DNA of 64,000 bases from Candidatus Hebobacterum abditum. Lineage in GTDB: Bacteria; Armatimonadota; Hebobacteria; Hebobacterales; Hebobacteraceae. Shown piece by piece: positions 16,273-32,323 of the stretch (positions are counted from its first letter, which is position 1; every line of letters starts with the position of its first letter). The stretch lies in the NCBI GenBank assembly GCA_029821875.1, contig JALGXW010000011.1, positions 15,060 to 79,059 of the forward strand, read 5' to 3'. Made by a program: the position numbers and the translations under genes. The notes under the pieces are model-generated. The model saw nothing but the letters and a program-made list of their open reading frames with translations, made no database searches and was not told the origin of the DNA.

Positions 16273-16734
16273 GTCGATCCCTCCCAGTATTGCTCTGGGA
16301 ACCGACATGCTATCTTTGCTGTGCACAGCACAGCAGAGGTGCTGTCAGTCCGTGGGGTCTGCTGCGCCGAGCTCTCATGCCGCAGTACTCTCGCGGCCTT
16401 CAGCGCAAAACAGTCCCTGCTTGTTTGTTCCACAACCGGGGCGAGGACACAGATATCGTACAGCCAGGGCCCCTGAAAGCGACGTCTAGGCCTGTCTGAG
16501 CCGGAATGGCGATTCGCGCGCGGCTGCCGGCAGAGGCCTGAGAGGACATCGGCCGGGGAGTGCGACCATGCAGGTCCGGCCCTGGCGCTGCAGAAGACAC
16601 CTCCACGTCAGCTTCCCTGAGTTCTGCGAGCTGCCCGCGGCGGCACCCCCGTGCTGATGGCGGCCTGCGTGGGCCCTCGCCGGGAGCACGGGCGAGCCGA
16701 CGGGGACACCACGACACAGAGGGGATTCAGCACG

Positions 16735-19700
16735 ATGCTTGGGCGAGGCAGACATTCCTATCCTCATATTCTGGTAGCCTTCCTGCTTGCGGCGGGCGTG
16801 CTATGCGCGCCGGCGCTGGGCGATTTCGAGTTGCCCGGTGCCGCGGGTCGGGCGGTATGGGAGGCGGAGGAGGCGGAGCAGGTCGACGCGTGGGAAATCA
16901 GCGCGCCCGGCGCGAAGGGCGCGCGGTACGTGCAGCCCAGCACCACGCACGGCGAGGCGACGCTGCTGTTCCCGTTTGAGGCAGAGGGGGCAACGACGCT
17001 GCGAGTGCGGCCGGTGTGGTGGCGCAACGGAGAGCAGAAGCTCGCCCGGCGATTCCCCTATCCATTGGCGAGGAAGCCGGGGCCGGACGTGGTGGACTTC
17101 GTCGGGGGGAAGGTGTTCTGCACCGCGCCGGAGGCGGGGAACGTGCTGATCGTCGGTGCGGCCGAGGAGAAGGTAGTGGGGTCAGTGGCGGTGGGCGGAT
17201 ACCTGACCGACCTCGTAGCGGATCGCGAGGCGGGGAAGGTGTACGTGGCCGATGCGCTTGGCGACCGGGTGGTCGTGATCAACGCCGAGCGGCCAAGCGT
17301 GGTGGGGGGATTCAGCGTGTCGGGGAGCCCGTGGGCGCTTGCGCTGGATGGCGGGACTCTGTACGTCGCGTGTCGTGATGGGAAGCGCGTGGTCGCGCTC
17401 AGCGCGGCGTCGGGCGAGGTGAAAGGGGAGGCGCACTTCGAGGCCGCACCGATCGGTGTGGCGCTGGTGGGGGAGGGGGAGAAGCAGCTAGTCGTCCGCT
17501 TCCAAGAGCAGGCGTTTGATGTCTTCACGCTGGAGGAACTGACTCCGGACGAGGAGCGGTTCGCGGCCCTCGACATGACCGGCAAGCCGCCGGCCGGCTG
17601 CGGCGGGCCGACGTGTGACTGCAAATGGGTGGAGGCGGTGGGGCCGCACCAGATCGCGATCGTGAGTGAGAAGCGACGCGAGATCGTGGATGTGAGCGTC
17701 GTAACGCGTCGGCCGGAGGCGGCCGGTCTCGAGGGGCAGCTGCCTGAGAACCCAGGGCCCTGTGCACTCGCGATGATGTACATAGGGGAGCCGCCGCGCA
17801 AGCAAGTGGGGTTCTTCACCGCGCCGAGCAGGGGACTGGTGGGAGTTGTGGACCTCGACAACGGCGTGCTTGAGGACCCAGTTCTCGTGGGAGGGTATCC
17901 GGCGGGGCTGACGCGCGATGAGGATAACGAGAAGTTGTACGTGTGTGATGCCGCGGGCGACCGGGTGGTGGTGATTGATGCCGCAACTCGGCAGGTGGTG
18001 CGCGAGATCGCCGTCGCCGGGCAGCCCTGGTCGGTCGTGCTCGTGAAGGAAGTGGCCTGGCAGCGCCCCGGTGATTGGCAGCCGCGGCGGGGAGAGGGGC
18101 CGATCATCGAGCCAACGCAGGTGAACCGGCTATACGTGGCCTGTCGCGAGACGGAGGAGCTAGTTGCGATCGATCTGGAGACGGAGGAAGTCGTGGCACG
18201 CGCACGACTACGGGGTGAGCCGAGCCGGGCAGAGTTCGTGTCAATGCCATCTCCCGCCTGGTGGCCGGTGATGGCCGATGATCGGATCCCATTCGCGCTC
18301 CACCCGCGGCTGGCCGTGGCAAGGCGGCCGGTCTGGATCGACCCGGAGACGCTGGCGGCAACAGCTGCGCCGTCGGGCACCCTCGATGCCTTGCCGCGGC
18401 GGACCGAGGCGCAAGTCCCCGTGGGCGGCGCGACGAAGACGTTCGCCGCGGACAATGAGCTCGTCTTGGGCGTTGATGGAGAACGCTGGATCGACCTGAG
18501 CGAGGCGGCGGACGCGCAGCGGATGGCGGCCCGGCCGCTGCACGCGAAGGAGATGCCCGGCACGATCACGGTCTCGCTCGACGAAGGACCCGAGTACGAC
18601 TGGGCGCGTAGCATCTGGACAGCACCGGACAGCGAGCTGTTCCTGGTCAATGACTCGGACGAGTTCTGGCGCTACAACGCGGTGAGCGTGCCTGTGGAGC
18701 CGGGCAGGCACGTCCTCCGGGTGAAGGCGCACAGTCCCTACGCGCGGTTCGATGCGCTTGTGGTCAGGCGGTCGCTGGAGCCCGATCTGCTGATGGAGGT
18801 AGTTCCCGAACCGCGCGCAGTGCACGACCAAGTGCCACTCGCGTCATACCAAGGCGTGTTCTACGACGAGGAACCGGTGCGGTTCACGGTCGCGGTGACC
18901 AACAGAAGCGAGAAGCCGGTCCGCCTGCAGTGGGGAGGTTCCCTGCGCAACTACCTGGGTGAGGTGCTGGAGGAGTTCGGGGACGAAGAGGTGCTGACCG
19001 TCGAGGGGGGAGATACCGTCACGATGCCGCTGGCGTTTGAGCCCGAAGAGACGGGCCGGTTCGCGCTGAGGGTGGGTTGTGTCTCCTGGGGGGCACCGCG
19101 GGGGACGCTGGTCAGGGACGTGCGCTTCGTTCGGCTGCCCAAGCTCGAGCATCCGCGTCTGTTCTGGCGCGCAGACGAAGAGAACGACATCCGGGCGCGC
19201 ATCGCGCAGTACCCGAACCTGTTTCGGCGCTACGGCGAGTGGCTGGAGCGGATGGCGCAGCGGGAGGGCAGGTTCCCGGAGCGGTTCCTGCCCCCGGGGA
19301 TCACGCGGGACGAGCTGATGGCGGCTGCGCCGGAGGACATGCCGCAGTGGGAGAAACGGGAGGGCTGCGGCTGGCGGATGTATGAGCTCGGGTGGCGGGT
19401 GTTGGCCGCTCAGTTCGTGCAGCGCTTCCTGAAGCCGGACAGCGCGACGCTGAGCAGCAAGATCGAGGGACTGCGCGGCGCGGAGAGGGCCCAAAGCTAC
19501 ATCCAGTACCACCACCACGGCCCCTTCTTCCCCGGGACCGCGGCCTCACTGGTGGACTTCGCTCCTGGGGAAGCACGGCAGGAGATGAAGCTCGACGACT
19601 TCTTCGAGCAGCACATGGGGGACACGAACACACTGCCGTGGACCCTGGTGATGATCGAGGAGCCGCTGACACCCGTAAAGCGGGCGCTTGTCTACGAGTT

Positions 19701-21348
19701 GGCGACATGGACGACCAATGCAGAGAGGTACTTCGAGGCCCGTCGGGGGGAGCGAGGCGGTCCGTGGTGGCTCGACCCGTATACAGGATGCCGGTGCCCG
19801 AACAGCGGGTACACCATCAGCTTCGTGCTGATGAGCAACTTCCTCGGGGAGCCGCGGGTGTTCGAGAACCCGATCTTCCGCGGCTACCTCACGTTCCAGC
19901 GATACGCCGACCCGATTCGCGACAACCGCACACTCATGCCCGGGCGGAGAGGGCCGAACGGCGAGCCGTGGCGGTGGCTGCTGAGCGCGCTCTGCCGGCA
20001 TCCTGTCGACAAGTCGGTCTACGGATGGGAGGAGTGGGTCGAGACGATGGAGGGGCCTTTGCCCGATGACGAGGAAGCGGCCGTGGATAGTCTCATGGCG
20101 CTGGAGGGGCGCGAGCTCGCCGGGCCGCTGTACGGGAACACGCACTACTTCGTGTCGGGCGTGGCCGTGCCGGTAGCACTCGCCCTTGGCTGGTACGATC
20201 CTGGCGCGCCGGAGGTGCAACCGGACGAGCTGCCGCCAACGGCCGCCTTCGATGTGGAGGGCTGGGTGGCGATGCGGTCCGGCTGGGATTTCCAGGCGAC
20301 CGAGGTGACGTTCGTCTCGGGCGTGAGGGACCACACGACGCGACACAAGCCAAACCACGTCACGATTGTGAAGAGTGGGGAGTTTCTACTCGGGACGCCG
20401 AGCCTGCTTTGGGATGACGGCAACAACGTGGGCGTCTGGGGGAACAGCGTCGTGGTCGGTGACGACTGGACCGAGCAGTGGCGGATGAACCTCCAACACC
20501 CGCGGGATGGCGAGCACATGGTTATCAACCGGTTCTCCCCGTGGAACTGGACCTACATCGCGCGGGACCGGCACATGGCGGGGTACAGACCTTCGGAGCA
20601 GGCCTGGGGCGGGGGACTGAACCTGCACGGACACACCGAGACGATGTTCATGAACGAGGGTCGATTGCTGGCCTACCAGACGTGGCCCGACCTAGACTAC
20701 GTCGCCGGCGACGCGAGCAACGCTTGGCGGTGCGAGGAGGTGGCACAGCTCGACCGGCAACTCGTGTTCCTCAAGCCCGACGTAGTAGTCGTCTACGACC
20801 GGGTGAAGCTCGGGCCGGAGGCCGATGAATCCCGGTGGCTGGCTGCAACGGGGCTGCATCTGCAGATCGAGGGGAGCACGTTCCGCGTGTTGAGCCGGTC
20901 ACGGTGCTTGGTGGGGGCGGTCGTGCTGCCAGACGAAGCGGTGCTCGCGACCCCAGAGCTCCCGGAGGACGCGTGGTATTGGCGCGGACAGCAAGCGCTC
21001 GAAGTGAGGCCGCCCGGACCGCGCGACGAAGTGGAATACCTCGTGGTGATGCGAGTCGGCGAGCCATGGCCGGCCTACCCGCGGCCGGAGCTGATCGAGC
21101 GTGAGGGCCGGGTGGGCGTGAGGCTGACGCTGGAGGATCGGGAGATCGCGGTGGCCTTCAACCGCGGCGGTGCGGTCGGCGGTAGAGCCACCATCGAAGC
21201 GGACGGCACGGTGAGCCGCTACGATCTTCGCGAGGAGATCGTAGACAGCTACGCGGGGTGGCAAGATGACCCGCGGCACGAGAGGTGGGAGCAGGAGCGG
21301 TTTGGGTTCATGGTGCCCGAGGTAGCGGCCAGCTCGGGGCGACACTGA
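16735..21348 (+). CDS. secreted YVTN-type beta-propeller repeat protein fused to a heparinase II/III-like (polysaccharide lyase-like) region
   Basis: Signal peptide MLGRGRHSYPHILVAFLLAAGVLCAPALG. Repeated motifs GKVYVADALGDRVVVI / EKLYVCDAAGDRVVVIDA. The later region, with HPRLFWRADEENDIRARIAQYPNLF and HKPNHVTIVKSGEFLLGTPS, resembles DUF4962 plus heparinase II/III. Confidence 0.8.
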   Translation: MLGRGRHSYPHILVAFLLAAGVLCAPALGDFELPGAAGRAVWEAEEAEQVDAWEISAPGAKGARYVQPSTTHGEATLLFPFEAEGATTLRVRPVWWRNGEQKLARRFPYPLARKPGPDVVDFVGGKVFCTAPEAGNVLIVGAAEEKVVGSVAVGGYLTDLVADREAGKVYVADALGDRVVVINAERPSVVGGFSVSGSPWALALDGGTLYVACRDGKRVVALSAASGEVKGEAHFEAAPIGVALVGEGEKQLVVRFQEQAFDVFTLEELTPDEERFAALDMTGKPPAGCGGPTCDCKWVEAVGPHQIAIVSEKRREIVDVSVVTRRPEAAGLEGQLPENPGPCALAMMYIGEPPRKQVGFFTAPSRGLVGVVDLDNGVLEDPVLVGGYPAGLTRDEDNEKLYVCDAAGDRVVVIDAATRQVVREIAVAGQPWSVVLVKEVAWQRPGDWQPRRGEGPIIEPTQVNRLYVACRETEELVAIDLETEEVVARARLRGEPSRAEFVSMPSPAWWPVMADDRIPFALHPRLAVARRPVWIDPETLAATAAPSGTLDALPRRTEAQVPVGGATKTFAADNELVLGVDGERWIDLSEAADAQRMAARPLHAKEMPGTITVSLDEGPEYDWARSIWTAPDSELFLVNDSDEFWRYNAVSVPVEPGRHVLRVKAHSPYARFDALVVRRSLEPDLLMEVVPEPRAVHDQVPLASYQGVFYDEEPVRFTVAVTNRSEKPVRLQWGGSLRNYLGEVLEEFGDEEVLTVEGGDTVTMPLAFEPEETGRFALRVGCVSWGAPRGTLVRDVRFVRLPKLEHPRLFWRADEENDIRARIAQYPNLFRRYGEWLERMAQREGRFPERFLPPGITRDELMAAAPEDMPQWEKREGCGWRMYELGWRVLAAQFVQRFLKPDSATLSSKIEGLRGAERAQSYIQYHHHGPFFPGTAASLVDFAPGEARQEMKLDDFFEQHMGDTNTLPWTLVMIEEPLTPVKRALVYELATWTTNAERYFEARRGERGGPWWLDPYTGCRCPNSGYTISFVLMSNFLGEPRVFENPIFRGYLTFQRYADPIRDNRTLMPGRRGPNGEPWRWLLSALCRHPVDKSVYGWEEWVETMEGPLPDDEEAAVDSLMALEGRELAGPLYGNTHYFVSGVAVPVALALGWYDPGAPEVQPDELPPTAAFDVEGWVAMRSGWDFQATEVTFVSGVRDHTTRHKPNHVTIVKSGEFLLGTPSLLWDDGNNVGVWGNSVVVGDDWTEQWRMNLQHPRDGEHMVINRFSPWNWTYIARDRHMAGYRPSEQAWGGGLNLHGHTETMFMNEGRLLAYQTWPDLDYVAGDASNAWRCEEVAQLDRQLVFLKPDVVVVYDRVKLGPEADESRWLAATGLHLQIEGSTFRVLSRSRCLVGAVVLPDEAVLATPELPEDAWYWRGQQALEVRPPGPRDEVEYLVVMRVGEPWPAYPRPELIEREGRVGVRLTLEDREIAVAFNRGGAVGGRATIEADGTVSRYDLREEIVDSYAGWQDDPRHERWEQERFGFMVPEVAASSGRH

Positions 21349-21696: not shown

Positions 21697-23433
21697 ATGA
21701 CTGTGTCCGCGGAGACGAACAGCAGCGATAGCGAGAAGCGGCCTGCAAAGGCGCTCCTTGTCCTTCGAGTCCTGCTCGGGATGGCGCTTGCTCCGGGAAT
21801 CCTCATTGCCGTGGTTGCGGCCGCGTCCGGCCTCGTCGAGAGCGCCGACGCGCTCGATCTCTGGATGTCGGGCGTGGCCGACATGCTCGCCCTGCGGGCC
21901 GAGACGCTGGCTCTGCTTGTCGCGCTCGTAGTCGCCATCCCGGGTCTGATGCTCGCGGGTCTGCTAGCGCGCCCGCGCTGGTGGTTGCCGGCCGTGCTGC
22001 CCTTCCTCCTTGGCTGCCTCCTTTGGCACGTGATGATGCGCGACATCAGCGCAGGATACGCCTACCCTTACTACATACAGCTGCTGTCCGTCTTGCACGT
22101 GGCGGGGACGGGTGCCGCCTTGTTCTTCGGCTGGCTGGGCTCGCGCCTCGCGCGCGGTGCCGGGGCCAGACAGACGTTGATTGCCCTGGTGACCCTATGG
22201 ACTGGCGGAGTCTGTCTCCTCGCGCTGGGCCGCGCGGAGATGGGGGATGACTCGGCCCTCGCGTTCTGGTTGTTCGCCGCGGGCTTTGAGTTGGGCCTGG
22301 GCGTGGTCGCGCTCGTCGGTTACTGGACGAGAGAAAACAGAGACCTTCTCCAGGTGAGCTGGGTGCTCTGGTGTCTCGTGGCCCTGGCCGCGGTTGCCGT
22401 TGGGCGTGGACTGGCGGCGGCCGGAGCGCTGGCCTGGTACTCTCCGCTGCCAGCGCTTGTGGTCGGGGGCGCGGTGTTCTCTGCGCTTGGCCTCGTGGCG
22501 GCCGCGCTGAGGCGCTCGAAGGTGGCCAAACGCCTCACGCGGGCCAGGGCCGTCCTCGGTCTCGCGTGTGTTGCGTCAGCAGCGGTAACCATGGCGCTGG
22601 CCAGGCTCTTCCCTCACCCCGCGCTTGCCAGCGCCGGTGGCTCGGGCTACGTCCTTCTGTCTGTTTCCCCAGGACTGGCTTCCTCCGTCGAGTTTCGCGC
22701 CGACCGCGTGCGGATAGCAGGCAGCCCAGACGGCCTCGACGACGCGCCATGGGTGGCGAGCGATTCCGTCGCCCCACCATACACGACCTTCTTGCCAGTC
22801 GGGGTGCCAGTGCCGCGAGAACAGCTGCCACCTGGGTGTGCCGGAGTGCAGGCGCGCTTCCAACTGATAGACTTCGATTATCTCTCGTTCGGCGCGAGAC
22901 GATGGGGCAAGCGCGCGGCGCTCCACGACATGATGGGTATAGTTGATGTCGGCTATCTCTTCAGGGATGCAGGGGGAGGCGACTGGACATACTGGGTGGG
23001 CGCGGGCTGGTTTGACATATCGGCGTCGGCGGATGGATCAAAGTTGGTGGAGATTCCTGCCTCTCCCCCCGACCGACCTGAGCTGACACTCTCGGTAGAC
23101 CTCGAGCGCGAGGAGAGGCACCACGTCGGGTTCGGCCTACGGCTCACGAGCGCAGACCGCATCATCGAAGACGTCGAGCGGGACGGCGAGAGCGTGTTGG
23201 CCAGTCTCGTCGTCTCTGATGCATCCGGCAATAGAGTGGTCTCCACGCGGGGCACGCTTGACGATCTGGGCTTCACCTGAGGGGGCCCCTGCTACTCCGT
23301 GCGAGTAGCCGACCCGGGCAGCTACGTGTGCAAGGCTGCGATCGACGTTGGCCCGTTGGGCGGCATGCTTGAGGCCGAGTCGGCCTTCACGGTCCCCCAG
23401 CGGCCGCAGACACGTCGCCGGCTGAGCTACTGA
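21697..23433 (+). CDS. polytopic membrane protein with C-terminal extracytoplasmic domain; putative selenoprotein (in-frame TGA at 23278..23280)
   Basis: The ORF to 23280 is clear, with about 8 hydrophobic helices followed by a soluble domain. Reading TGA as Sec adds 50 codons (GGPCYSVRVADPGSYVCKAAIDV...) that are homologous to the post-TGA tail of the 24543 gene. A hairpin lies 10 nt after the TGA. Confidence 0.6.
23291..23309 (+). promoter_or_regulatory. putative bacterial SECIS hairpin
   Basis: GCUACUC-CGUGC-GAGUAGC is a perfect 7-bp stem with a 5-nt loop containing GU. It starts 10 nt after the TGA at 23278..23280. Confidence 0.55.
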
Positions 23434-23601: not shown

Positions 23602-24480
23602 ATGAGATGGCTGCCTGTGCTGTTGCTGGTCGCGCTACTGCTTCCTGCTCCGGCCGAGGGTTCCTCGGAAGAGCCAGTGGCGGTCACTGCCCTTCTCTCG
23701 GGCGAGGTTGCACCTCTGGTCATCACGCTCGGCAGCCTCGACAGCGGGTGGTGCCGGTTCACCACTGGTGGGGGCGGAGGCACGGACATCTACTCCGCGA
23801 TGTATGGCATACAGCCCTCCCCCTACTACACAAAGGGAGAGACCGTCTGCGCTGGCGACCAAGTGTATCTGCTCGCCTACAAGACCGAGACCCGTCAGGC
23901 AGGCTACTTGGCACTCATGACTGGCCAGCGAGACATGGAGGATGTCCCCGCGGTCACGGCGGAGACGGAGCTCGGCCTGTGTCTTCTCAATCTCGCCACC
24001 ATCGGCAGCTTCCTTGACATCAGCGCCTTCGACCTGGAGTCGGAGATCCAACGCTACGCGGAGGCCGCCGAGCGGCTGGAGACCACTCTCGCGGGGATGC
24101 GGGGCGGCTATGATTACGAAGAGGGGGCCGCCGAGGACAACCTCGACGAGATCGCTCTGGCACTCGAGATGTACACCATCGACCACGGGGACGTTCTGCC
24201 TCCTATGTCTACGCAGGAGGAGTGGCAGGAGGCGCTAAGCTGGTACGTGGCTGACTTATCGGTCTTTGTCGATTCGGCGACGGCCGAGCCATATCCCATC
24301 AATGCATCTCTGTCAGGTGTGGAGCTGGCCTCGATGGAGGAGCCTGGGGAGATCGTCGCCGTCTACGAAGCTCAGCTTCGTGACGACGAGACACGAAAGG
24401 TCGTCTTTGCCGACGGCTCCACTGGATACATCGCCGAGGACGCCTGGGCCCAGATGAAGGCTGCATCGGGCATCCAATAA
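23602..24480 (+). CDS. secreted hypothetical protein
   Basis: Signal peptide MRWLPVLLLVALLLPAPAEG and SD GAAAGGAG upstream. The C-terminal half (NLDEIALALEMYTIDHGDVLPP...VFADGSTGYI) loosely resembles the conserved C-terminal module of DUF1559/pseudopilin-like proteins. Confidence 0.75.
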   Translation: MRWLPVLLLVALLLPAPAEGSSEEPVAVTALLSGEVAPLVITLGSLDSGWCRFTTGGGGGTDIYSAMYGIQPSPYYTKGETVCAGDQVYLLAYKTETRQAGYLALMTGQRDMEDVPAVTAETELGLCLLNLATIGSFLDISAFDLESEIQRYAEAAERLETTLAGMRGGYDYEEGAAEDNLDEIALALEMYTIDHGDVLPPMSTQEEWQEALSWYVADLSVFVDSATAEPYPINASLSGVELASMEEPGEIVAVYEAQLRDDETRKVVFADGSTGYIAEDAWAQMKAASGIQ

Positions 24481-24542: not shown

Positions 24543-25373
24543 ATGCGACACGCGCTGAAGCTCAGTCTGGCATGTATGCTGCTGGCAGGGGCGCTGTTAG
24601 CCCCTGCCCACGCCGCGCCGAAGGCGGTCTACGTCAAGCTGACGTCAGGCACTGACGGCGGGCCGGTGGCGTACGCGGAGCTTCGAGGCAACGAGATCCG
24701 CGTGGCTCCCACCGTCGAGCGGCTCGTCGACGCAGAGGCCATAAAGGCAAGTGATGCCGGCCTCGAGCGCCATGGCAACATGGCCTATCAGCACGGCACG
24801 TTCCCTTCCGTCGACCTCCCGGCGCAGGACCCCGAGGTCGCGAAGGTGTCCGCCACATTCTCGGTGTGGCGCGCGGTGAGTCGGAGCCGGAGCCGACGTT
24901 GGGAAACAGAGAACTTCAGGGTCAGCGCCGAGATATCGTTCGCTAAGCGCGGCCCCGGCGGCGCGGTCTGGACCTATGTGTTCAGCTCCCACGCCGAGGC
25001 GAGCGCGGCGACGCAGCCGTCGAAGGCCGCCAGCCTCGCCATCCCGCCCCTTGAGAAACTCCAACTGAGTATGGAGACCCAGGTGAAGGGGAGAGAGGCG
25101 GGCATTGGCCTGCGGCTGAAGTCGGGCGAAGTCGTTCTCACCCACGTGCGCCGCAACGGCGATGCCGCCGTGTGCACGCTGGAGATCTATGACCGGCAGG
25201 GACAGAAGGTGAGCACCCACAAGGGCGATCTCCAGAAGTTCGGGTTTACCTGATCGGGACCATGCTACTCCGTGAGAGTGGCCAATCGAGGATCGTATGT
25301 AGTCAAGGCGACGGCGGATGTGAGCGCGGATGGCCAGCCGCTGACCGCGGAGGCGAAGCTCTTCGTTCGCTGA
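24543..25373 (+). CDS. secreted protein, paralog of the C-terminal domain of the 21697 gene; putative selenoprotein (in-frame TGA at 25251..25253)
   Basis: Signal peptide MRHALKLSLACMLLAGALLAPAHA. Reading through the TGA adds SGPCYSVRVANRGSYVVKATADVSADGQPLTAEAKLFVR. A hairpin lies 10 nt after the TGA. A rho-independent terminator follows the extended stop, not the TGA. Confidence 0.6.
25264..25282 (+). promoter_or_regulatory. putative bacterial SECIS hairpin
   Basis: GCUACUC-CGUGA-GAGUGGC is a 7-bp stem with one U-G wobble replacing the U-A pair seen in the paralog, and a 5-nt loop with GU. It starts 10 nt after the TGA. Confidence 0.55.
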
Positions 25374-25397
25374 ACTGCTGGCGCGGATACTGCAATG

Positions 25398-25432
25398 GCG
25401 CCACGGCCCGGATTGGGTCGTGGCGCTTTCTT
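25398..25432 (+). terminator. rho-independent terminator candidate
   Basis: 8-bp stem GCGCCACG ... CGTGGCGC followed by TTTCTTCGTG, located 25 nt after the extended stop at 25373. Confidence 0.55.
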
Positions 25433-25564: not shown

Positions 25565-26794
25565 ATGGAGCGCGAGCGGACAACAGCCTTCAGCGAAGCC
25601 TGCAACGCCGGAGAGCCGGCCGTCGCGCCGGACGGTAAGGGAGACCCGTTCGCCTGGTTCGCTTCGATGCTGCCTAACTGCCTGGAGTACGCGAAGGCGG
25701 CCAAAGCGGAGGGGCGGCCGATCGTCGGCATAACGTGCGAATACACGCCGAGAGAACTGATAGTCGCCGCCGGGGCGGTCCCGGTGTGCCTGTGCGGCGG
25801 CTCCGCGGACACCATTCCTACGGCCGAGCGAGACCTTCCCGCCAACCTGTGTCCGCTGGTCAAGTCCACCTATGGCTACCACGCAGAGAAGGGCAACCCA
25901 CTCCTTGAGATGGCCGATCTGCTTGTGGTCGAGACGACCTGCGACGGCAAGAAGAAGATGTACGAGCTGATGGCCGAGAGCCGGCCCGTGCATCTGCTCG
26001 AGCTGCCGCAGAAGGCGGAAGACGATGCTGCCTTCGAGCACTGGGCGGGCGAGCTTCGCGCCCTTGTCGCCGTGCTTGCGGAGAAGCTCGGCGGCTCGCC
26101 GTCCCAGGATGGCATCGAGAGCGCAATTCGAGCCATGAATCGCGAGCGATCGCTGCGGCGCGACCTGGCCGCCCTGATGCAGTCGGACGCCCCCCCGCTA
26201 ACCGGACGGCAACTGCTCGACTGCCGAAGCATCATCGCCGGCGTTCCTGTGGCTCTGGAACAGTATGAGCGGACGCTGGACATGCTTCGGGCCGGGGAAG
26301 CGCGTGGCGAGATGAATTCGGGGGTGCGCGTGCTGATGACAGGCGTGCCGATCGTCCGGGGAGCGGAGCGCGTTGTGGACATAGTCGAAGGAGCCGGCGG
26401 CCTCGTCGTCTGCATGGAGAACTGCACAGGTGTCAAGCCGATTCTCGACGACGTCGCAGAGGGTACGCCCGATCCGATGCACGCGATAGCCGAGAAGTAC
26501 TTCGCGCTGCCCTGCTCGGTGATGACGCCGAATGAGCGACGGCAGACGACGCTCCGTCAGCTGGCGGAGGAGTACCGACCACAGTGCGTGATCGAGCTCA
26601 TCTGGCAGGCCTGCCTGACCTATGACGTTGAGTCGTTCTTCATCCGGCGTCTGGCGGAGGAAGAACTCGGGATACCGTATCTTCGAATCGAGACGGACTA
26701 CTCGCCATCCGACTCCGCGCGCATTGAGACACGGGTGCAGGCTCTCTTCGAGACGGTGCGCGGGCGGTCTGTTGCCGAGACGAGAAGAGGATGA
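25565..26794 (+). CDS. 2-hydroxyacyl-CoA dehydratase family / double-cubane-cluster (YjiM-like) protein
   Basis: 409 aa with conserved Cys positions (ITCEYTPRELI, VCLCGG, NLCPLVKS, ETTCDGKKKMYE). It is a single subunit immediately followed by an activase gene. Confidence 0.75.
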   Translation: MERERTTAFSEACNAGEPAVAPDGKGDPFAWFASMLPNCLEYAKAAKAEGRPIVGITCEYTPRELIVAAGAVPVCLCGGSADTIPTAERDLPANLCPLVKSTYGYHAEKGNPLLEMADLLVVETTCDGKKKMYELMAESRPVHLLELPQKAEDDAAFEHWAGELRALVAVLAEKLGGSPSQDGIESAIRAMNRERSLRRDLAALMQSDAPPLTGRQLLDCRSIIAGVPVALEQYERTLDMLRAGEARGEMNSGVRVLMTGVPIVRGAERVVDIVEGAGGLVVCMENCTGVKPILDDVAEGTPDPMHAIAEKYFALPCSVMTPNERRQTTLRQLAEEYRPQCVIELIWQACLTYDVESFFIRRLAEEELGIPYLRIETDYSPSDSARIETRVQALFETVRGRSVAETRRG

Positions 26795-26797
26795 GCC

Positions 26798-27571
26798 TTG
26801 ATCTGTGCTGGCATTGACGCGGGCTCCAGGACGACCAAGATCGCCCTCATGGGAGACGGCGACGAGGTGCTGCTCGCGTCGGCGGTGGGCGAGCCGGGTG
26901 CGTGCACCGCGACTCAGGCGGAGGAGCTGTTCGAGAAGACCGTCGCGCAGCACCAAGTGGACCGGGACCGCATCGGGCGCGTCGTCGCAACGGGATACGG
27001 CCGCGCGGCACTACAGATGGCCGATACGACCGTCACCGAGATAACATGCCATGCCCGCGGGGTGCAGTTTCTCGAGCCAAGAGCGGCCACCGTGGTGGAG
27101 ATCGGCGGACAGGATAGCAAGATCATCCTGCTGGACGGGAACGGCGGGGTCCGCGATTTCGTCATGAACGACCGTTGTGCGGCTGGCACAGGTCGATTCC
27201 TGGAGATGGTCGCGGAGCGCCTCGACGTCGGGGCCGTGGGGCTTGGCGAGTTGGCGGCCGGGAGTCAGAAGCCAGCGACCATCAATCCCACTTGCGCCGT
27301 CTTTGCGGAGACTGAGATCATCGGACTGCTATCGGCCGGCGCGAAGCCCCAGGACGTCGCGGCCGGCGTGCAGGAAACCGTCGCCACCCGCATGGCGACT
27401 CTGGCCGTAGGCAGGGCCGAGCGGCCCGTGGTCTTCGCCGGTGGCGTGGCGCTGATACCGGGGATGGCCAGCGCGCTGAGTCGCGCCCTTGCGTGTCAAG
27501 TAGAGGTGGCGAGCGCGCCGCAGCTCACCGGAGCCATCGGAGCGGCGCTCATAGCCTGCCGGGAGGCATGA
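26798..27571 (+). CDS. CoA-substrate-specific enzyme activase (BcrAD/BadFG/HgdC/YjiL-type ATPase)
   Basis: ICAGIDAGSRTTKIAL, VVEIGGQDSKII, NDRCAAGTGRFLE (cluster-ligating Cys), CAVFAETE. TTG start. Confidence 0.85.
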   Translation: MICAGIDAGSRTTKIALMGDGDEVLLASAVGEPGACTATQAEELFEKTVAQHQVDRDRIGRVVATGYGRAALQMADTTVTEITCHARGVQFLEPRAATVVEIGGQDSKIILLDGNGGVRDFVMNDRCAAGTGRFLEMVAERLDVGAVGLGELAAGSQKPATINPTCAVFAETEIIGLLSAGAKPQDVAAGVQETVATRMATLAVGRAERPVVFAGGVALIPGMASALSRALACQVEVASAPQLTGAIGAALIACREA

Positions 27572-27997: not shown

Positions 27998-29629
27998 ATG
28001 GTGGCAGGTACGTCAAAGCGGGCGCGAGTGATGGGTCGGTCTGCCCGCGTTGGGCACTGCATCTGCGATCCGAGGAAGCCGTGCCCCTGCGACGTCTTCC
28101 TGGAGCAAGACGTGTGTCTCTGTGCGGGCGAACGCCTGCCGGACGCCGACAGCCCCACGGAGTCGATCGCCTTGACCAAGCTAGTGAAGAACGCTGGCTG
28201 CGCCTCGAAGATCCCTCCCGCCTACCTGGCATCGATTCTCTCCCGCCTACCGAGGATAGAGGACCCGCGGCTGCTCGTCGGGAGCCACACAGCGGACGAC
28301 GCCGGGGTCTTCGAGATCGCCCCTGATCTGCTCCTGGTGCAGACGGTCGACGTCTTCGCTCCCTGTGTCGATGATCCGTACGAGTTCGGACAGATCGCGG
28401 CCTGCAACTCGCTGAGCGATTGCTACGCAATGGGTGGGACCCCGCTCACTGCGATGTCTGTCATCGGCTACCCCGCGCATACCTTGAGCGATGAGTGGAT
28501 GTGCCAGATCCTACGGGGGGGCATGGACAAGCTGGCGGAGGCCGATGTGGTCCTCGTCGGCGGCCACAGCGCCAACGACGACGATATCAGGTTCGGCTTC
28601 GCAGTGACTGGCATCGCGAGCCAGGCCGACCTGATCACCAACGCAGGCGCGCAGCCGGGTGACCTGCTCATCCTGACGAAGCCCCTGGGAACGGGGATAG
28701 TCGCCTTCGCCTCCCAGGTCGGACGCGCCTCGGAGGAGGACAAGCGAGCGTCCGCGGCCTCCATGATGATGCTCAACCGGGCCGCGTCGCAGGTCATGCG
28801 CGAGGTTGGCGCTCATGCCTGCACGGACGTCACGGGATTCGGCCTCCTCGGCCACCTTCGCCACATGGTGTGCGCAAGCCGCGTCACAGCAGAGGTCTGG
28901 TGGGAGAGACTGCCGCTGTTCGAGGGGATCGGGGGATATGCTCTGGACGGCCTGGTCTCCGGGGCCGCCGAACGCAACCGGGAGTTCGCCGGGGAACTGA
29001 CCGAGGTGGGGGAGGCGACCCCGGAATGGGTGTTGGATGTCCTCTATGACCCGCAGACATCGGGGGGACTGCTGATTTCCGTTGCGGCCACATCGGCCGA
29101 GCCCACTGTCTCGCGGCTCAAATCGCTGGGGTGCACCGAGTCCGCCGTAGTCGGCCAAGTGACCGAGGAATCGGAGGGGAGGATACTGGTGAAGAAGGCA
29201 GATGAGAGTGCCGCGAGTGACGCCGTGTCGGGCTCACCCGCGCGTGACAGGGCGGCGCAAGACGACATCGCGTCGGCAGCCTCGCGGAGTGTGCCTGTGG
29301 CAGAGGCGAACACCGAGGAATGCTGCGCGCCTGGCAGCGCTCCCGCCGACGCGAGCGAGACGCAGAGGCGGTTCAGCCAGTTCATGGGCGCCGCCTTCGG
29401 GCCCGGCGCCCTGGACGTGGTTCAGAAAGAGCTCGTCACGATCGCGCTGTCGGTTGCGACGCGCTGTGAGCCATGCCTCAAGGTTCACCTGGACAAGGCC
29501 GAGAAGATGGGAATCTCGGCTGATGAGGTGAAGGAGGCCGCCTGGATGGGCGTGGCCTTTGGCGGCGCCAGCGCGATGATGTTCTGGACGGAAGCATCGA
29601 AGCTGCTGCTTGATGACGAAGGCGCGTAG
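27998..29629 (+). CDS. selD: selenide, water dikinase (selenophosphate synthetase) with N-terminal Cys-rich extension and C-terminal AhpD/carboxymuconolactone-decarboxylase-like domain
   Basis: SelD core: LTKLVKNAGCASKIPP (Cys form of the catalytic loop), DDAGVFE, QTVDVF, GGHSANDDDIRFG, TDVTGFGLLGHL. N-terminal HCICDPRKPCPCDVFLEQDVCLCAGE. The C-terminal roughly 90 aa contain the RCEPC (CxxC) motif typical of AhpD-like domains. Confidence 0.9.
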   Translation: MVAGTSKRARVMGRSARVGHCICDPRKPCPCDVFLEQDVCLCAGERLPDADSPTESIALTKLVKNAGCASKIPPAYLASILSRLPRIEDPRLLVGSHTADDAGVFEIAPDLLLVQTVDVFAPCVDDPYEFGQIAACNSLSDCYAMGGTPLTAMSVIGYPAHTLSDEWMCQILRGGMDKLAEADVVLVGGHSANDDDIRFGFAVTGIASQADLITNAGAQPGDLLILTKPLGTGIVAFASQVGRASEEDKRASAASMMMLNRAASQVMREVGAHACTDVTGFGLLGHLRHMVCASRVTAEVWWERLPLFEGIGGYALDGLVSGAAERNREFAGELTEVGEATPEWVLDVLYDPQTSGGLLISVAATSAEPTVSRLKSLGCTESAVVGQVTEESEGRILVKKADESAASDAVSGSPARDRAAQDDIASAASRSVPVAEANTEECCAPGSAPADASETQRRFSQFMGAAFGPGALDVVQKELVTIALSVATRCEPCLKVHLDKAEKMGISADEVKEAAWMGVAFGGASAMMFWTEASKLLLDDEGA

Positions 29630-29702: not shown

Positions 29703-29801
29703 GGGAGCGGATTGGTTCTGGTGGACCTCCCCGGGCTTCAAACCCGGCGGTGGGGCCCTGATAAGGTCCTGGGTGGGTTCGATTCCCACACGCTCCCGCC
29801 A
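29703..29801 (+). tRNA. selC: tRNA-Sec (anticodon UCA)
   Basis: Anticodon arm CCGGG-CUUCAAA-CCCGG with UCA at positions 34-36. Long variable arm GGGCC-CUGAUAA-GGUCC. T arm GUGGG-UUCGAUU-CCCAC. Acceptor GGGAGCG/CGCUCCC, then G73 and an encoded CCA. It lies between selD and selA. Confidence 0.85.
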
Positions 29802-29850: not shown

Positions 29851-30756
29851 ATGAGCACGAGCGACCGCCGACAGCGACTGCTGGAGAAACGGCCACGAGT
29901 GCAGCTCTACTCCCTCGTTGTGCTCAACAGCTACATCCTCGCACCTGTCGGCAAGTACATCTGCCTGCCTGTGCTGAACTGCTACGCCTGCCCGATTGGG
30001 ACCGTCGCTTGTCCGGTCGGAAGCATCACCGCCTTCGTTATGGTGCCCTACTTCCCATTCTACGTCATCGGCATGCTGGGCATCGCCGGCCTTGCCGTCG
30101 GCAGAGCCTTCTGCGGATGGGCCTGCCCGTTCGGGTACGTGCAGGATCTGCTCCATCGCATCCCTGGCCGCAAGTTCGGGCTGCCTCGTGCACTCGACGC
30201 GACGAAGTACGTCTTGCTAGTCGTCCTTGTGGTGGGCCTTCCTCTTCTGCTTGGCAACCCGTACGACTTCACGGGAACTGAGCGAGTCGTCTTCGAGGCA
30301 GGCGGCACGTGGGACTACTGTGCACTGGTGTGCCCTGTCGGGACGCTCCAGGCGGGTGTGCCCGGCCTCATAGCCAATGCCGACTTCCGCGAGAAGGCAT
30401 CGTGGCGCACGGCGAGCAAGCTCGCCATCCTCGCTATCGTGTTGGCCCTCGCCGTGCTGTCGCACCGGAGCTTCTGCCGAGTTCTGTGTCCGCTTGGCGC
30501 ACTCATGGCGATCGCCTCGATTGTCAAGCTGCCCCGGCTTCGCACCGATCAGGGCGCGTGCACGCGCTGCCTGCGCTGCCGCCGCACATGCCCGACCAGC
30601 AGTCGCTTAGTACCAGAGAATGCCGGCGAGGGCGAGGCCACCTCCGAGTGCGTTCTCTGTCTCGAATGTGTGCGGGTCTGCCCTGAGGCCGGCGCGCTCT
30701 CTGCTTCCCTGGGAGGGAAGTCCCTGGTGACATCCGGAGGAAAGACGAGTGAGTAG
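29851..30756 (+). CDS. NapH/NosR-type membrane 4Fe-4S polyferredoxin
   Basis: CxxxCP motifs (NCYACPIG, VACPVGS, GWACPFGYVQDLL, LVCPVGT, VLCPLGA) within TM segments, plus two ferredoxin motifs CTRCLRCRRTCP and CVLCLECVRVCP. Confidence 0.8.
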   Translation: MSTSDRRQRLLEKRPRVQLYSLVVLNSYILAPVGKYICLPVLNCYACPIGTVACPVGSITAFVMVPYFPFYVIGMLGIAGLAVGRAFCGWACPFGYVQDLLHRIPGRKFGLPRALDATKYVLLVVLVVGLPLLLGNPYDFTGTERVVFEAGGTWDYCALVCPVGTLQAGVPGLIANADFREKASWRTASKLAILAIVLALAVLSHRSFCRVLCPLGALMAIASIVKLPRLRTDQGACTRCLRCRRTCPTSSRLVPENAGEGEATSECVLCLECVRVCPEAGALSASLGGKSLVTSGGKTSE

Positions 30757-30877
30757 GAAGACCTGGATACTGGTTGCTGTCGTGCTGTCGGTACTGGCCG
30801 CATGCCTCGCGTATGGCATCTACCTCGGCGACCCGGGCTATGTGTTCGCCAATGCCCTGGCCGTCTGCTATACGTGA
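30749..30877 (+). CDS. possible 42-aa single-helix membrane peptide
   Basis: GTG at 30749 overlaps the polyferredoxin stop. The translation is VSRKTWILVAVVLSVLAACLAYGIYLGDPGYVFANALAVCYT. It is below the track cutoff and has no homology support. Confidence 0.3.
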   Translation: MSRKTWILVAVVLSVLAACLAYGIYLGDPGYVFANALAVCYT

Positions 30878-30898
30878 CCGCTAGGAGAATGACCGCGC

Positions 30899-32323
30899 GT
30901 GTCGCGGCCCAAACCCAACAACGGTGATGACGATCGGTCCGCCCTCCGGCGGCTCCCGCGCGTGGACGACCTCCTCGCGCACCACCTGCTGGCCGACCTG
31001 GTTCGGCGCGCGCCCCGCTCTGTCGCGCTCAGTGCTGCCCGGGACGCGGTGGCCGAGGCGCGGGAGCAGATCCGCCGAGGCGAGGACATGTCCGACCACG
31101 ATTTGGTCGCGGCGCGAGCGGCCGAACTCCTGGAGGGACGCCTGCGGCCGAGCCTCCGTAGGTGCATCAACGCAACCGGTGTCATCCTTCACACTGGGCT
31201 CGGCCGAGCGCCCTTCTCGGCGGCCGCGCAGAGCGCGGTGGCGGAGGTGACGAAGGGATACAGCAACGTGCAGGCCGACATCGCAACGGGCCAGCGCGCC
31301 AGCCGGGAGGCACACGTGGAGTGGCTCCTCGAGCAGATCTGCGGTGCTCCCGCGGCGGTGGTCGTGAACAACAACGCCGCGGCGACGGTGCTCGTACTGA
31401 ACACACTGGCGGCCGACCGAGAGGTCATCGTCTCCCGCGGTGAGCTCATCGAGATCGGCGGAGCGTTCCGTCTTCCCGATATCATCCGTCTGGCGCGCTG
31501 CCGATTGGTCGAGGTCGGCTGCACGAACAGAACACACCTGCGCGACTATGAGCAAGCGATTACAGGGGACACCGCGCTGCTGCTCTCGATCCATCAAAGC
31601 AACTACGTGATCCAGGGCTTTGCCTCTCAGGTGGACATCAGCGAGATCGCCCGATTGGCGAAGTCCCGCAATCTGGTGTGCGCGCACGACCTCGGCAGTG
31701 GGGCGCTGGTCGACCTGCGCCGCTTCGGCTTGCCCTATGAACCTGTGGTGCGGGTGAGCCTGGAGGGGGGCGCCGACATTGCCTTCTTCAGCGGGGACAA
31801 GCTGCTCGGCGGGCCGCAGTGCGGGGTAATCGTGGGCGAGGCCGATCTTCTGCAGTCGATGCGTCAGAACCCCTTCTATCGCACCTTCAGGGTCGACAAG
31901 CTCACGCTCGCCGCGCTCGAGAGTACCCTGCGTCTCTTCTTGGATGTTGACGCACTGCCCGACACGCATCGCGTCATCGCCATGCTGACCGTCCCCGTGG
32001 AAGAGCTGAGGGCCCGAGCCCAAACGCTGGCGGAGACCGCGCGCGAGCGTTGTGGCTCCTGGCTTCGCACAGACGTGCGCGACGGGGAGTCGCAAGTCGG
32101 CGGCGGCTCTCTTGCAGGCCACGCGCTTCCCACTGCGCTCGTGGCGCTCGTGTCCGATCGCGTGTCGCCGCTCGAACTTGCGCGTCGGCTCCGCGCAGGC
32201 GATCCACCGGTGTTCGCGCGAGTCGGGGACGACGCCGTGCTCCTCGATGCCCGCACTATGGAGGCGAGCGACGACGCTCCTCTCGTACATGCCCTGGAGC
32301 AGGTGGGTCGCTCCCTTGGGTGA
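30899..32323 (+). CDS. selA: L-seryl-tRNA(Sec) selenium transferase
   Basis: GELIEIGGAFRLPDI and FSGDKLLGGPQCGVIVG (PLP lysine motif). The 474-aa length fits SelA. GTG start with AGGAGA upstream. Confidence 0.9.
   Translation: MSRPKPNNGDDDRSALRRLPRVDDLLAHHLLADLVRRAPRSVALSAARDAVAEAREQIRRGEDMSDHDLVAARAAELLEGRLRPSLRRCINATGVILHTGLGRAPFSAAAQSAVAEVTKGYSNVQADIATGQRASREAHVEWLLEQICGAPAAVVVNNNAAATVLVLNTLAADREVIVSRGELIEIGGAFRLPDIIRLARCRLVEVGCTNRTHLRDYEQAITGDTALLLSIHQSNYVIQGFASQVDISEIARLAKSRNLVCAHDLGSGALVDLRRFGLPYEPVVRVSLEGGADIAFFSGDKLLGGPQCGVIVGEADLLQSMRQNPFYRTFRVDKLTLAALESTLRLFLDVDALPDTHRVIAMLTVPVEELRARAQTLAETARERCGSWLRTDVRDGESQVGGGSLAGHALPTALVALVSDRVSPLELARRLRAGDPPVFARVGDDAVLLDARTMEASDDAPLVHALEQVGRSLG

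Follow-up and report, generated by a model that had tools for sequence, protein, structure and literature searches.

An in-frame TGA at positions 23278-23280 of a 64,000-nucleotide stretch of the Candidatus Hebobacterum abditum genome (contig JALGXW010000011.1; hereafter the window) very probably encodes selenocysteine (Sec). It lies in a gene, called gene A here, that appears to belong to an unannotated family of probably exported proteins encoded inside a sel gene cluster. This reading draws on comparative sequence analysis: TGA recurs in the same alignment column across the family, the codons that follow it are under purifying selection, a hairpin just downstream shows covariation, and the Sec machinery is encoded nearby. 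A preliminary description of the window had proposed read-through of this TGA as Sec, with the hairpin acting as a Sec insertion sequence (SECIS), and these results support that proposal. The preliminary description had not seen the large unannotated family inside a conserved sel gene island, nor the second, tiny candidate selenoprotein found there. The elements of gene A are as follows.

21697..23433, plus strand: full recoded coding sequence of gene A, from the open reading frame (ORF), its translation, and hydropathy.
23278..23280, plus strand: in-frame TGA, putatively read as Sec within the motif GFT-U-GGPCYSVRVA, from TGA in the same column across the family.
23291..23309, plus strand: SECIS-type hairpin GCUACUC-CGUGC-GAGUAGC, from folding, covariation, and position.
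23281..23430, plus strand: 50-codon C-terminal tail, from the ratio of nonsynonymous to synonymous substitution rates (dN/dS) and the structural model of the homolog P0110.

The ORF of gene A (21661/21697..23280) ends in RGTLDDLGFT, followed by the TGA at 23278-23280. As the preliminary description had stated, the same frame continues past this codon for 50 codons (GGPCYSVRVADPGSYVCKAAIDVGPLGGMLEAESAFTVPQRPQTRRRLSY) to a closing TGA at 23431-23433. This second TGA is taken as the true stop. The hairpin at 23291..23309 was present in every minimum free energy (MFE) fold. The first ATG, GTG, or TTG in frame after the TGA is the GTG at 23299, which encodes the Val of CYSVRV. The description's statement that no start codon lies ahead of GPCYS was thus correct, and GPCYS cannot belong to an independent ORF. 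At the other end of the gene, the real start is probably ATG 21697, preferred from the ortholog on contig L001, which starts MTLSAET, and not TTG 21661, the mechanical ORF start. The upstream part of gene A has approximately 9 to 10 hydrophobic segments, and by hydropathy a K/R-rich loop (SKVAKRLTR) precedes the last one, so that the C-terminal domain would sit outside the membrane; the earlier designation as a membrane protein agrees with both features. The predicted layout of the protein is a polytopic membrane N-terminal part (approximately 9 to 10 transmembrane segments), an extracytoplasmic domain of two β-sandwiches, the Sec codon, and the tail.

The conservation of the tail, which had also been claimed before, was borne out within the window itself by a paralog with TGA in the same column.

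24543..25373, plus strand: gene B, a paralog predicted to be secreted by way of a putative signal peptide, from a six-frame motif scan.

The proteins of genes A and B are approximately 30% identical over approximately 270 residues, and the TGA column lies centrally within the best-conserved block of their entire alignment. Gene B ends in GDLQKFGFT-TGA (25251-25253), then SGPCYSVRVANRGSYVVKATADV and, at the end of its tail, FVR, with the true stop at 25371-25373. Its hairpin, GCUACUC-CGUGA-GAGUGGC (25264-25282), has a U-G pair where gene A has U-A. A terminator-like hairpin of 14 pairs followed by TTCTT lies at 25397-25427 (plus strand), 24 nt past the true stop of gene B, and none such follows its first stop. 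On L001, a hairpin of different sequence occupies the equivalent place. A word-indexed protein search returned only four close relatives, all of 235 to 236 amino acids, i.e., ending at the same place. Their contigs, from a marine-sediment metagenome-assembled genome (MAG) of Candidatus Hebobacteria (Armatimonadota) and a Logan assembly, carry both genes. In the orthologous loci (L001-L006 and L004), A and B each have the same-column TGA, the conserved tail, and an equivalent second stop, and the TGA is kept in both orthologs of three related genomes.

A HMMER profile built from the pre-TGA parts was searched against 1.84 billion representative proteins and matched 205 clusters (50% identity) at E ≤ 1e-3 and 132 at E ≤ 1e-10. 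Of the best 150 matches, approximately 135 extend precisely to where the profile stops and close with G[FY][TSG], and the DNA of distant members continues with TGA, the sequence xG(x)PC[YC]SV[RG][VI]A, and a tail of 37 to 39 codons. Members came from Candidatus Brocadiia and other Planctomycetota MAGs, further Armatimonadota MAGs, and peat and sediment metagenomes, and 2 to 4 tandem paralogs per genome are common. Since a 77-sequence alignment had no sufficiently conserved stretch, metagenomes were scanned with degenerate DNA patterns, which biased the sample to the GPC[YC]SV core; the pattern permitted TGA, TGC, or TGT at the critical codon. There were 79 distinct genuine TGA sequences versus one genuine Cys (TGC) form, on contig L059 (...GTLDDFGFS-C-DGPCYSV...), and the remaining TGY matches to the pattern were due to chance and are not family members. 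Matches from Nibrella, Pseudoalteromonadaceae, and Sedimentisphaerales were inspected and dropped as non-family, as were contigs L029, L033, L050, L061, L066, L091, L092, L095, L101, L102, and L104. Approximately 10 longer, uninterrupted homologs have unrelated residues at the Sec and partner-Cys columns (e.g., GFTRGGPVYSTRL and GYTWDEPRYSTMV).

Insertion of Sec at UGA with a bacterial SECIS is a textbook mechanism; the protein family is new to Pfam, NCBIfam, and PDB. No Pfam or NCBIfam model matched the window proteins. For Pfam-A there was only a subthreshold match to FlgD_ig (0.028), and no family was consistently matched among 93 members. The same 93 members matched no selenoprotein model of NCBIfam release 20 at E ≤ 0.01; near the cut-off there were two single-member matches, to an aminopeptidase model and to a hypothetical-protein model. 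A sequence-profile search of PDB gave nothing below E = 0.18. We found no paper describing the family in a literature search, although "hypothetical protein" entries of BSepDB could include it.

The tail evolves in the same way as the codons before the TGA. Among orthologs, its dN/dS (Nei-Gojobori) is 0.20 to 0.49, with 0.31 to 0.49 for gene A, against 0.26 to 0.48 for the preceding 100 codons, with differences biased to third codon positions as in the upstream codons, and the similarity between the window and L001 vanishes directly after the second stop. The upstream-like dN/dS and the end of homology at the second stop together indicate that the tail is translated. Of the 78 members whose tail is complete, 67 have one of 37 to 39 codons. 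All 79 distinct Sec-form sequences carry TGA as the internal stop, whereas the terminal stops are mixed (TAG in 36, TGA in 26, and TAA in 16).

The gene A hairpin consists of a 7-bp stem and a 5-nt loop, starts 11 nt after the UGA, and has 17 nt between the UGA and the loop; its energy alone is -8.9 kcal/mol, and that of the gene B hairpin is -8.5 kcal/mol. In the bacterial SECIS (bSECIS) model, the loop has 3 to 9 nt with a G among its first two nucleotides, the stem has 4 to 16 bp, the UGA lies 16 to 37 nt from the loop, and the MFE is at most -7.5 kcal/mol (PMC13188914). The gene A hairpin, with G-U at positions 2 and 3 of its loop CGUGC, satisfies all of these constraints (PMC13188914). 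Across the 64,000 plus-strand positions of the window, 89 start a hairpin with a 7-bp stem (G-U allowed) and a 5-nt loop, eight of these hairpins have an xGU loop, and two of the eight sit exactly 11 nt after the two paralogous TGAs. This placement, together with TGA in 79 of 79 sequences, excludes chance.

Selection on the hairpin as RNA is indicated by its pairing and codon choice. Among 68 distinct sequences, 98.9% of the pair cells are paired, compared with 23 to 58% in controls with the 3' arm slid, and RNAalifold independently predicted the same helix. At pair 18-28, 53 sequences have C-G, 14 have U-A, and 1 has U-G; at pair 16-30, 47 have U-A and 21 have U-G. The compensatory change from C-G to U-A at pair 18-28 combines Tyr TAC to TAT with Val GTA to Ile ATA. 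In the 3' arm, every one of the 68 sequences has A or G, and none has C or T, as the third base of the Arg/Gly codon and of the Val/Ile codon. In the window genes, GTA makes up 6% of Val codons and GTC plus GTT 51%, and CGA and AGA make up 12% and 5% of Arg codons, respectively; it is this use of rare, pairing-preserving codons that points to selection at the RNA level. In the Cys form on L059 the hairpin is gone, the corresponding sequence folding at only -2.8 kcal/mol. A distant membrane-anchored relative on L019 (10913-11599 and downstream; ...GKFEYG-TGA-GGTCRYSGRIP...) has the hairpin GGUAUUC-CGGGC-GAAUACC, which has the same shape but differs from that of the main family by two more compensatory changes of base pairs.

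The tRNA-Sec, selD, selA, and selB genes are all encoded 5 to 11 kb downstream of gene A on the same strand, in a sel island with the following components.

25565-26794, plus strand: double-cubane-cluster anaerobic reductase (NF040772, 390 bits; PF06050).
26798-27571, plus strand: ATP-dependent activase of the reductase (TIGR00241).
27998..29629, plus strand: SelD fused to an AhpD/CMD domain (TIGR00476, 354 bits; PF02627).
29703..29801, plus strand: tRNA-Sec, anticodon TCA (ARAGORN; Rfam RF01852, 67.3 bits versus a gathering score of 47).
29851..30756, plus strand: NapH/MauN-like membrane polyferredoxin (Fer4_5), conserved in the cassette across phyla.
30749..30892, plus strand: small ORF with a single transmembrane segment, ...AVCYT-TGA(30875-30877)-PLGE-TGA(30890-30892), from a conserved pattern.
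30899-32323, plus strand: selA (PF03841, 441 bits).
32330-34252, plus strand: selB, with GTP_EFTU, Beta-barrel_SelB, and SelB winged-helix domains.

Of 9 neighboring genes, 4 end in TGA as their ordinary stop, and none of the 9 (approximately 5,000 codons) contains an internal TGA, so the genetic code is standard. The SelD is a Cys form (GCASK) with a Cys-rich N-terminal extension of approximately 55 residues (HCICDPRKPCPCDVFLEQDVCLC), and its C-terminal AhpD/CMD domain has a CEPC motif. The cassette of family members, SelD-AhpD, the NapH-like gene, the small ORF, SelA, and SelB recurs in Armatimonadota and Planctomycetota. Among 54 metagenome loci, which are short (median length, 4 kb), SelD-CMD was found in 21 and at least one cassette gene in 37. 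Beside the family genes lies one of two modules, the double-cubane reductase and its activase or else a corrinoid (B12-binding) protein accompanied by two URO-D-type methyltransferases; window 25565-27571, L008 9744-12632, and L019 15039-17798 are examples of one or the other. The two modules never occur together in the 54 loci, which suggests that they are interchangeable cytoplasmic partners. Proteins of the NF040772 double-cubane type are almost confined to SelD-containing genomes (Haft and Gwadz, bioRxiv 10.1101/2022.07.06.499078), and at this locus the reductase and SelD genes are directly adjacent.

The small ORF between the NapH-like gene and selA, which reads 42 codons to its first TGA (30749-30877), is probably a CxxU selenoprotein of 47 amino acids, judging from its conserved pattern. 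A small ORF with C[YF][TS]-TGA, 3 to 5 codons, and a second TGA was found at nine distinct loci in both phyla. Eight of the nine have a 7-bp hairpin with the loop CGUG[U/G/C] (GACCGCG-CGUGN-CGCGGUC) 10 to 16 nt after the first UGA; in the window, the hairpin GACCGCG-CGUGU-CGCGGCC (approximately 30891-30909) is reduced to 5 bp by a single A-C mismatch. That an unrelated small ORF has a stem of this length and this loop after its UGA independently supports a form of SECIS recognized by the SelB of this clade. The small ORF is probably cut short or ignored by gene callers.

The fold was approached through P0110, a full-length non-Sec homolog, which was modeled by AlphaFold2 with a 93-sequence alignment (predicted local distance difference test [pLDDT], 91.6; predicted template modeling score, 0.85). 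The model consists of a signal helix and two β-sandwich domains. The Sec column corresponds to R246, in a loop between a short helix (239-242) and a strand (251-254), and the second β-sandwich ends in three strands (251-254, 259-267, and 276-284) formed by the part that aligns with the tail. By this model, the tail of gene A should supply the last three strands of its C-terminal β-sandwich. The model of truncated gene B was poor in the C-terminal domain (pLDDT, 30 to 47), and its PDB search was uninformative; a Foldseek search of PDB with the P0110 model matched only generic FN3, Ig, and macroglobulin domains at E ≥ 2e-3. The invariant signature GF[T/S/G]-U-xG(x)PCYSV lies in a Gly-rich loop of this C-terminal Ig/FN3-like domain. 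Gene B and most homologs have a basic, hydrophobic, AxA-type leader, as judged by inspection. The family proteins are thus predicted to be exported and to have two β-sandwich domains, gene A being the membrane-anchored member and gene B a member with a signal peptide.

In the mechanism that we propose, SelB with Sec-tRNA(Sec) would be recruited by the 7-bp/CGUGC hairpin 11 nt downstream of the UGA, Sec would be inserted, and the ribosome would continue for 50 codons to the true stop at 23431-23433. Other readings of the TGA can be set against this one. It may be an ordinary stop followed by a non-coding RNA or regulatory element, such as a terminator or attenuator, or by an independent small gene, as the gene calls of every public source terminate the proteins at this codon and the region does contain a stable hairpin. 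This is extremely unlikely, however, because the tail has no start codon before GPCYS, evolves with a dN/dS of 0.2 to 0.5, and is conserved in length in multiples of three; the internal stop is TGA in 79 of 79 sequences while the terminal stops vary; the non-Sec homologs run through the region with three confidently modeled strands; and the gene B terminator follows the second stop. The preliminary description had itself raised an assembly error, with TGG or TGC as the real codon. A sequencing or assembly error or a pseudogene lesion could account for a single in-frame stop in one assembly, and TGC does occur on L059 and Trp in the non-Sec homolog P0124 at this column. The chance of such an error is negligible given that the same TGA recurs in gene B and across two phyla in 79 distinct sequences, which come from assemblies made independently (JGI, ENA, NCBI, and Logan), with both flanks under purifying selection. 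Read-through of the UGA without Sec, either by near-cognate suppression (Trp, Cys, or Arg) or by a reassigned code (Trp or Gly), would likewise explain a translated tail. We nevertheless consider it very unlikely, as TGA terminates 4 of the 9 neighbors and is internal to none of them, the complete Sec machinery adjoins, the hairpin conforms to the bSECIS model, covaries, and is lost in the Cys form, and the sole motif-preserving substitution is Cys, the analogue of Sec.

Several observations weigh against the reading of the UGA as a Sec codon served by this hairpin, or against the roles assigned to the protein. By the classical Sec/Cys-pair criterion, Cys is aligned to Sec in one form only (n = 1), and the other non-Sec homologs lack both residues. 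The family member at position 7959 of L020 keeps the Sec-TGA and the hairpin, but its partner Cys is replaced by Ser (FAFG-U-GGPSYSVRVA), which speaks against a strict Sec-Cys couple. The stem overlaps the conserved CYSVRVA peptide, so its conservation is partly protein driven; the degenerate DNA search pattern partly fixed the 5' arm; and the compensatory change from C-G to U-A may reflect few independent events, possibly in one subfamily (SVRIA). Folding of the wider region was no better than that of shuffled sequences (z, +0.8 to -0.5; the sequence is 65% GC), and the hairpin is accordingly argued for by its position, conservation, codon choice, and covariation and not by its energy. As for function, the Foldseek matches are generic only (E ≥ 2e-3) and gave no functional assignment, and the sel linkage could simply mean that the Sec machinery has this family as its main client. 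The tandem neighbor of the Ser-bearing member, at 9092 of L020, has the partner Cys.

Our best guess for the function, from context and motif, is that the loop GF[TSG]-U-xGPCYSV serves selenium metabolism outside the cytoplasm, as a Sec/Cys site for redox reactions or as a carrier. Beyond the cytoplasmic membrane, Sec and the Cys 4 to 5 residues later would make up either a selenenylsulfide with redox activity or a site of covalent carriage; possible partners are the membrane ferredoxin of NapH type and the small membrane peptide with CxxU, in a process that may be linked to selenium or chalcogen metabolism. This link is suggested because the genes travel with SelD-AhpD, selA, selB, and the double-cubane reductase or the corrinoid set. 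A more specific version, which at present seems rather improbable, is a dedicated selenium acquisition pathway made of selenoproteins, in which the Sec-Cys loop would capture selenium, or a methylated or elemental form of it, outside the cell and selenide would be delivered to SelD; its parts would be the family, the 47-amino-acid CxxU peptide, the NapH-like ferredoxin, SelD-AhpD, and the double-cubane reductase or corrinoid demethylase.

The sel linkage may, on the other hand, have no mechanistic meaning, the family being simply the principal client selenoprotein, e.g., a periplasmic peroxidase or thiol-disulfide oxidoreductase, inherited together with its machinery as a single island. The sel genes are known to be co-located and co-transferred with a formate dehydrogenase client gene. 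The Sec trait has been proposed to co-evolve with FdhA (PMC1794560), and several tandem paralogs per genome fit an abundant effector. This alternative is tenable if somewhat doubtful, but it leaves unexplained why SelD is always the AhpD-fusion form and why the NapH-like gene, the CxxU peptide, and the reductase or methyltransferase module are retained across two phyla. Alternatively, the Sec-x3/4-Cys loop might bind a soft metal, metalloid, or organometal (Hg, As, Cu, or methyl-metal species) and feed cytoplasmic enzymes in a manner analogous to the selenocysteine-assisted organometallic (SAO) system. The family genes do adjoin the double-cubane reductase and activase or the corrinoid protein and URO-D-type methyltransferases, double-cubane proteins have been tied to SelD and to extracytoplasmic Cys-Sec metal-binding selenoproteins (Haft and Gwadz, bioRxiv 10.1101/2022.07.06.499078), and the Ser-bearing member on L020 keeps Sec without the partner Cys. 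Metal binding is unlikely in our view, since none of the 93 members matched a selenoprotein model of NCBIfam, any Sao models there included, the motif is U-x3/4-C and not CU, and no ABC transporter or efflux pump is conserved nearby.

Between genes A and B, the window encodes one further conserved protein.

23602..24480, plus strand: 292-amino-acid secreted partner protein, conserved in L001, L004, and L019.

It is present in these three syntenic contigs and in 10 of the 54 metagenome family loci, and it matched no Pfam or NCBIfam family. It is conserved both in the Armatimonadota cassette and on a Planctomycetota-like contig (L019 8934-9800), and its C-terminal half has the motif NL.(Q/E)(L/I)ALA(V/L).MY followed by D.LPPM. 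The terminator-like hairpin after gene B suggests that gene A, the gene of this partner (p292, 23602-24480), and gene B may be transcribed as a unit of their own, apart from the reductase and the sel genes. Directly upstream of gene A is a 1,565-amino-acid YVTN/NHL-type β-propeller repeat protein (16651-21348, plus strand), which is not found in the syntenic Hebobacteria MAG locus; MoxR, DUF58, and RDD genes lie upstream there instead.

These results add a large selenoprotein family whose members current annotation systematically cuts short at the Sec codon, so that all family genes in public databases need their C-terminus lengthened by 37 to 50 residues. Methods for selenoprotein discovery depend on Cys-containing homologs (PMC12013277), and the family was missed by such Cys/Sec-pair methods because Cys homologs are nearly absent (Sec:Cys, approximately 79:1). 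It also places Sec in a new structural setting, the Gly-rich loop of an Ig/FN3-like β-sandwich that is predicted to be exported, and defines a conserved sel island in Armatimonadota and Planctomycetota, in which SelD-AhpD and a NapH-like protein are joined by the tiny second candidate selenoprotein and by enzymes of the double-cubane or corrinoid type. The island offers a testable handle on why double-cubane reductases track SelD (Haft and Gwadz 2022) and on how anaerobes handle extracytoplasmic selenium.

The minimal SECIS of Escherichia coli fdhF is reported to have an 11-nt spacing. Bacterial genes whose SECIS lies within the coding region (e.g., E. coli fdhF and those of PMC13188914 and BSepDB, PMC13326102) resemble those described here in the UGA with a downstream stem-loop with G-U in its loop, in the presence of selA, selB, selC, and selD, and in database truncation at the UGA. 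The family differs from known bacterial selenoprotein genes in having no Pfam or NCBIfam relationship and an Ig/FN3-like fold, not a thioredoxin-like or molybdopterin one. In nearly all selenoprotein families, Cys homologs far outnumber Sec forms (PMC13188914), whereas here Sec outnumbers Cys 79 to 1. A few families have scarce or no Cys homologs (GrdA, FdhA, SelW-like, and GrdB), and Sec has been suggested to be ancestral in them (PMC1794560). GrdA shares this Sec dominance and has no sequence relationship to the family; it is cytoplasmic and part of the glycine reductase complex, whereas the family is predicted to be exported and is encoded in the sel operon.

The SAO proteins (Haft and Gwadz 2022) are alike in their extracytoplasmic Sec/Cys sites, predicted as such for the present family, and in the association with NF040772 and SelD, but the family has U-x3/4-C and not CU, occurs in different phyla (Armatimonadota and Planctomycetota), and has its genes inside the sel operon. 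Membership among the SAO selenoproteins (SaoB, SaoX, SaoL, and SaoP) was considered and rejected, as there was no NCBIfam match and no CU dipeptide and the neighborhood is unlike the nine-gene sao locus. Likewise rejected was a thioredoxin-fold CxxU/UxxC oxidoreductase, the motif being U-x3-C or U-x4-C in a β-sandwich loop before a strand and no thioredoxin-type Pfam family being matched. The N-terminal (alpha) domain of DsbD is a periplasmic Ig fold with a redox-active Cys pair, and SoxY has a Cys in a Gly-rich GGCGG arm. Both may serve as a working analogy only, that of a reactive chalcogen in an exposed Gly-rich loop of a β-sandwich, predicted in the present family to be extracytoplasmic, with a membrane electron-transfer partner nearby, here the NapH-like protein. 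Neither was among the Foldseek PDB or profile matches, and the present family differs from them in its putative Sec, its motif, and the position of the site in the domain.

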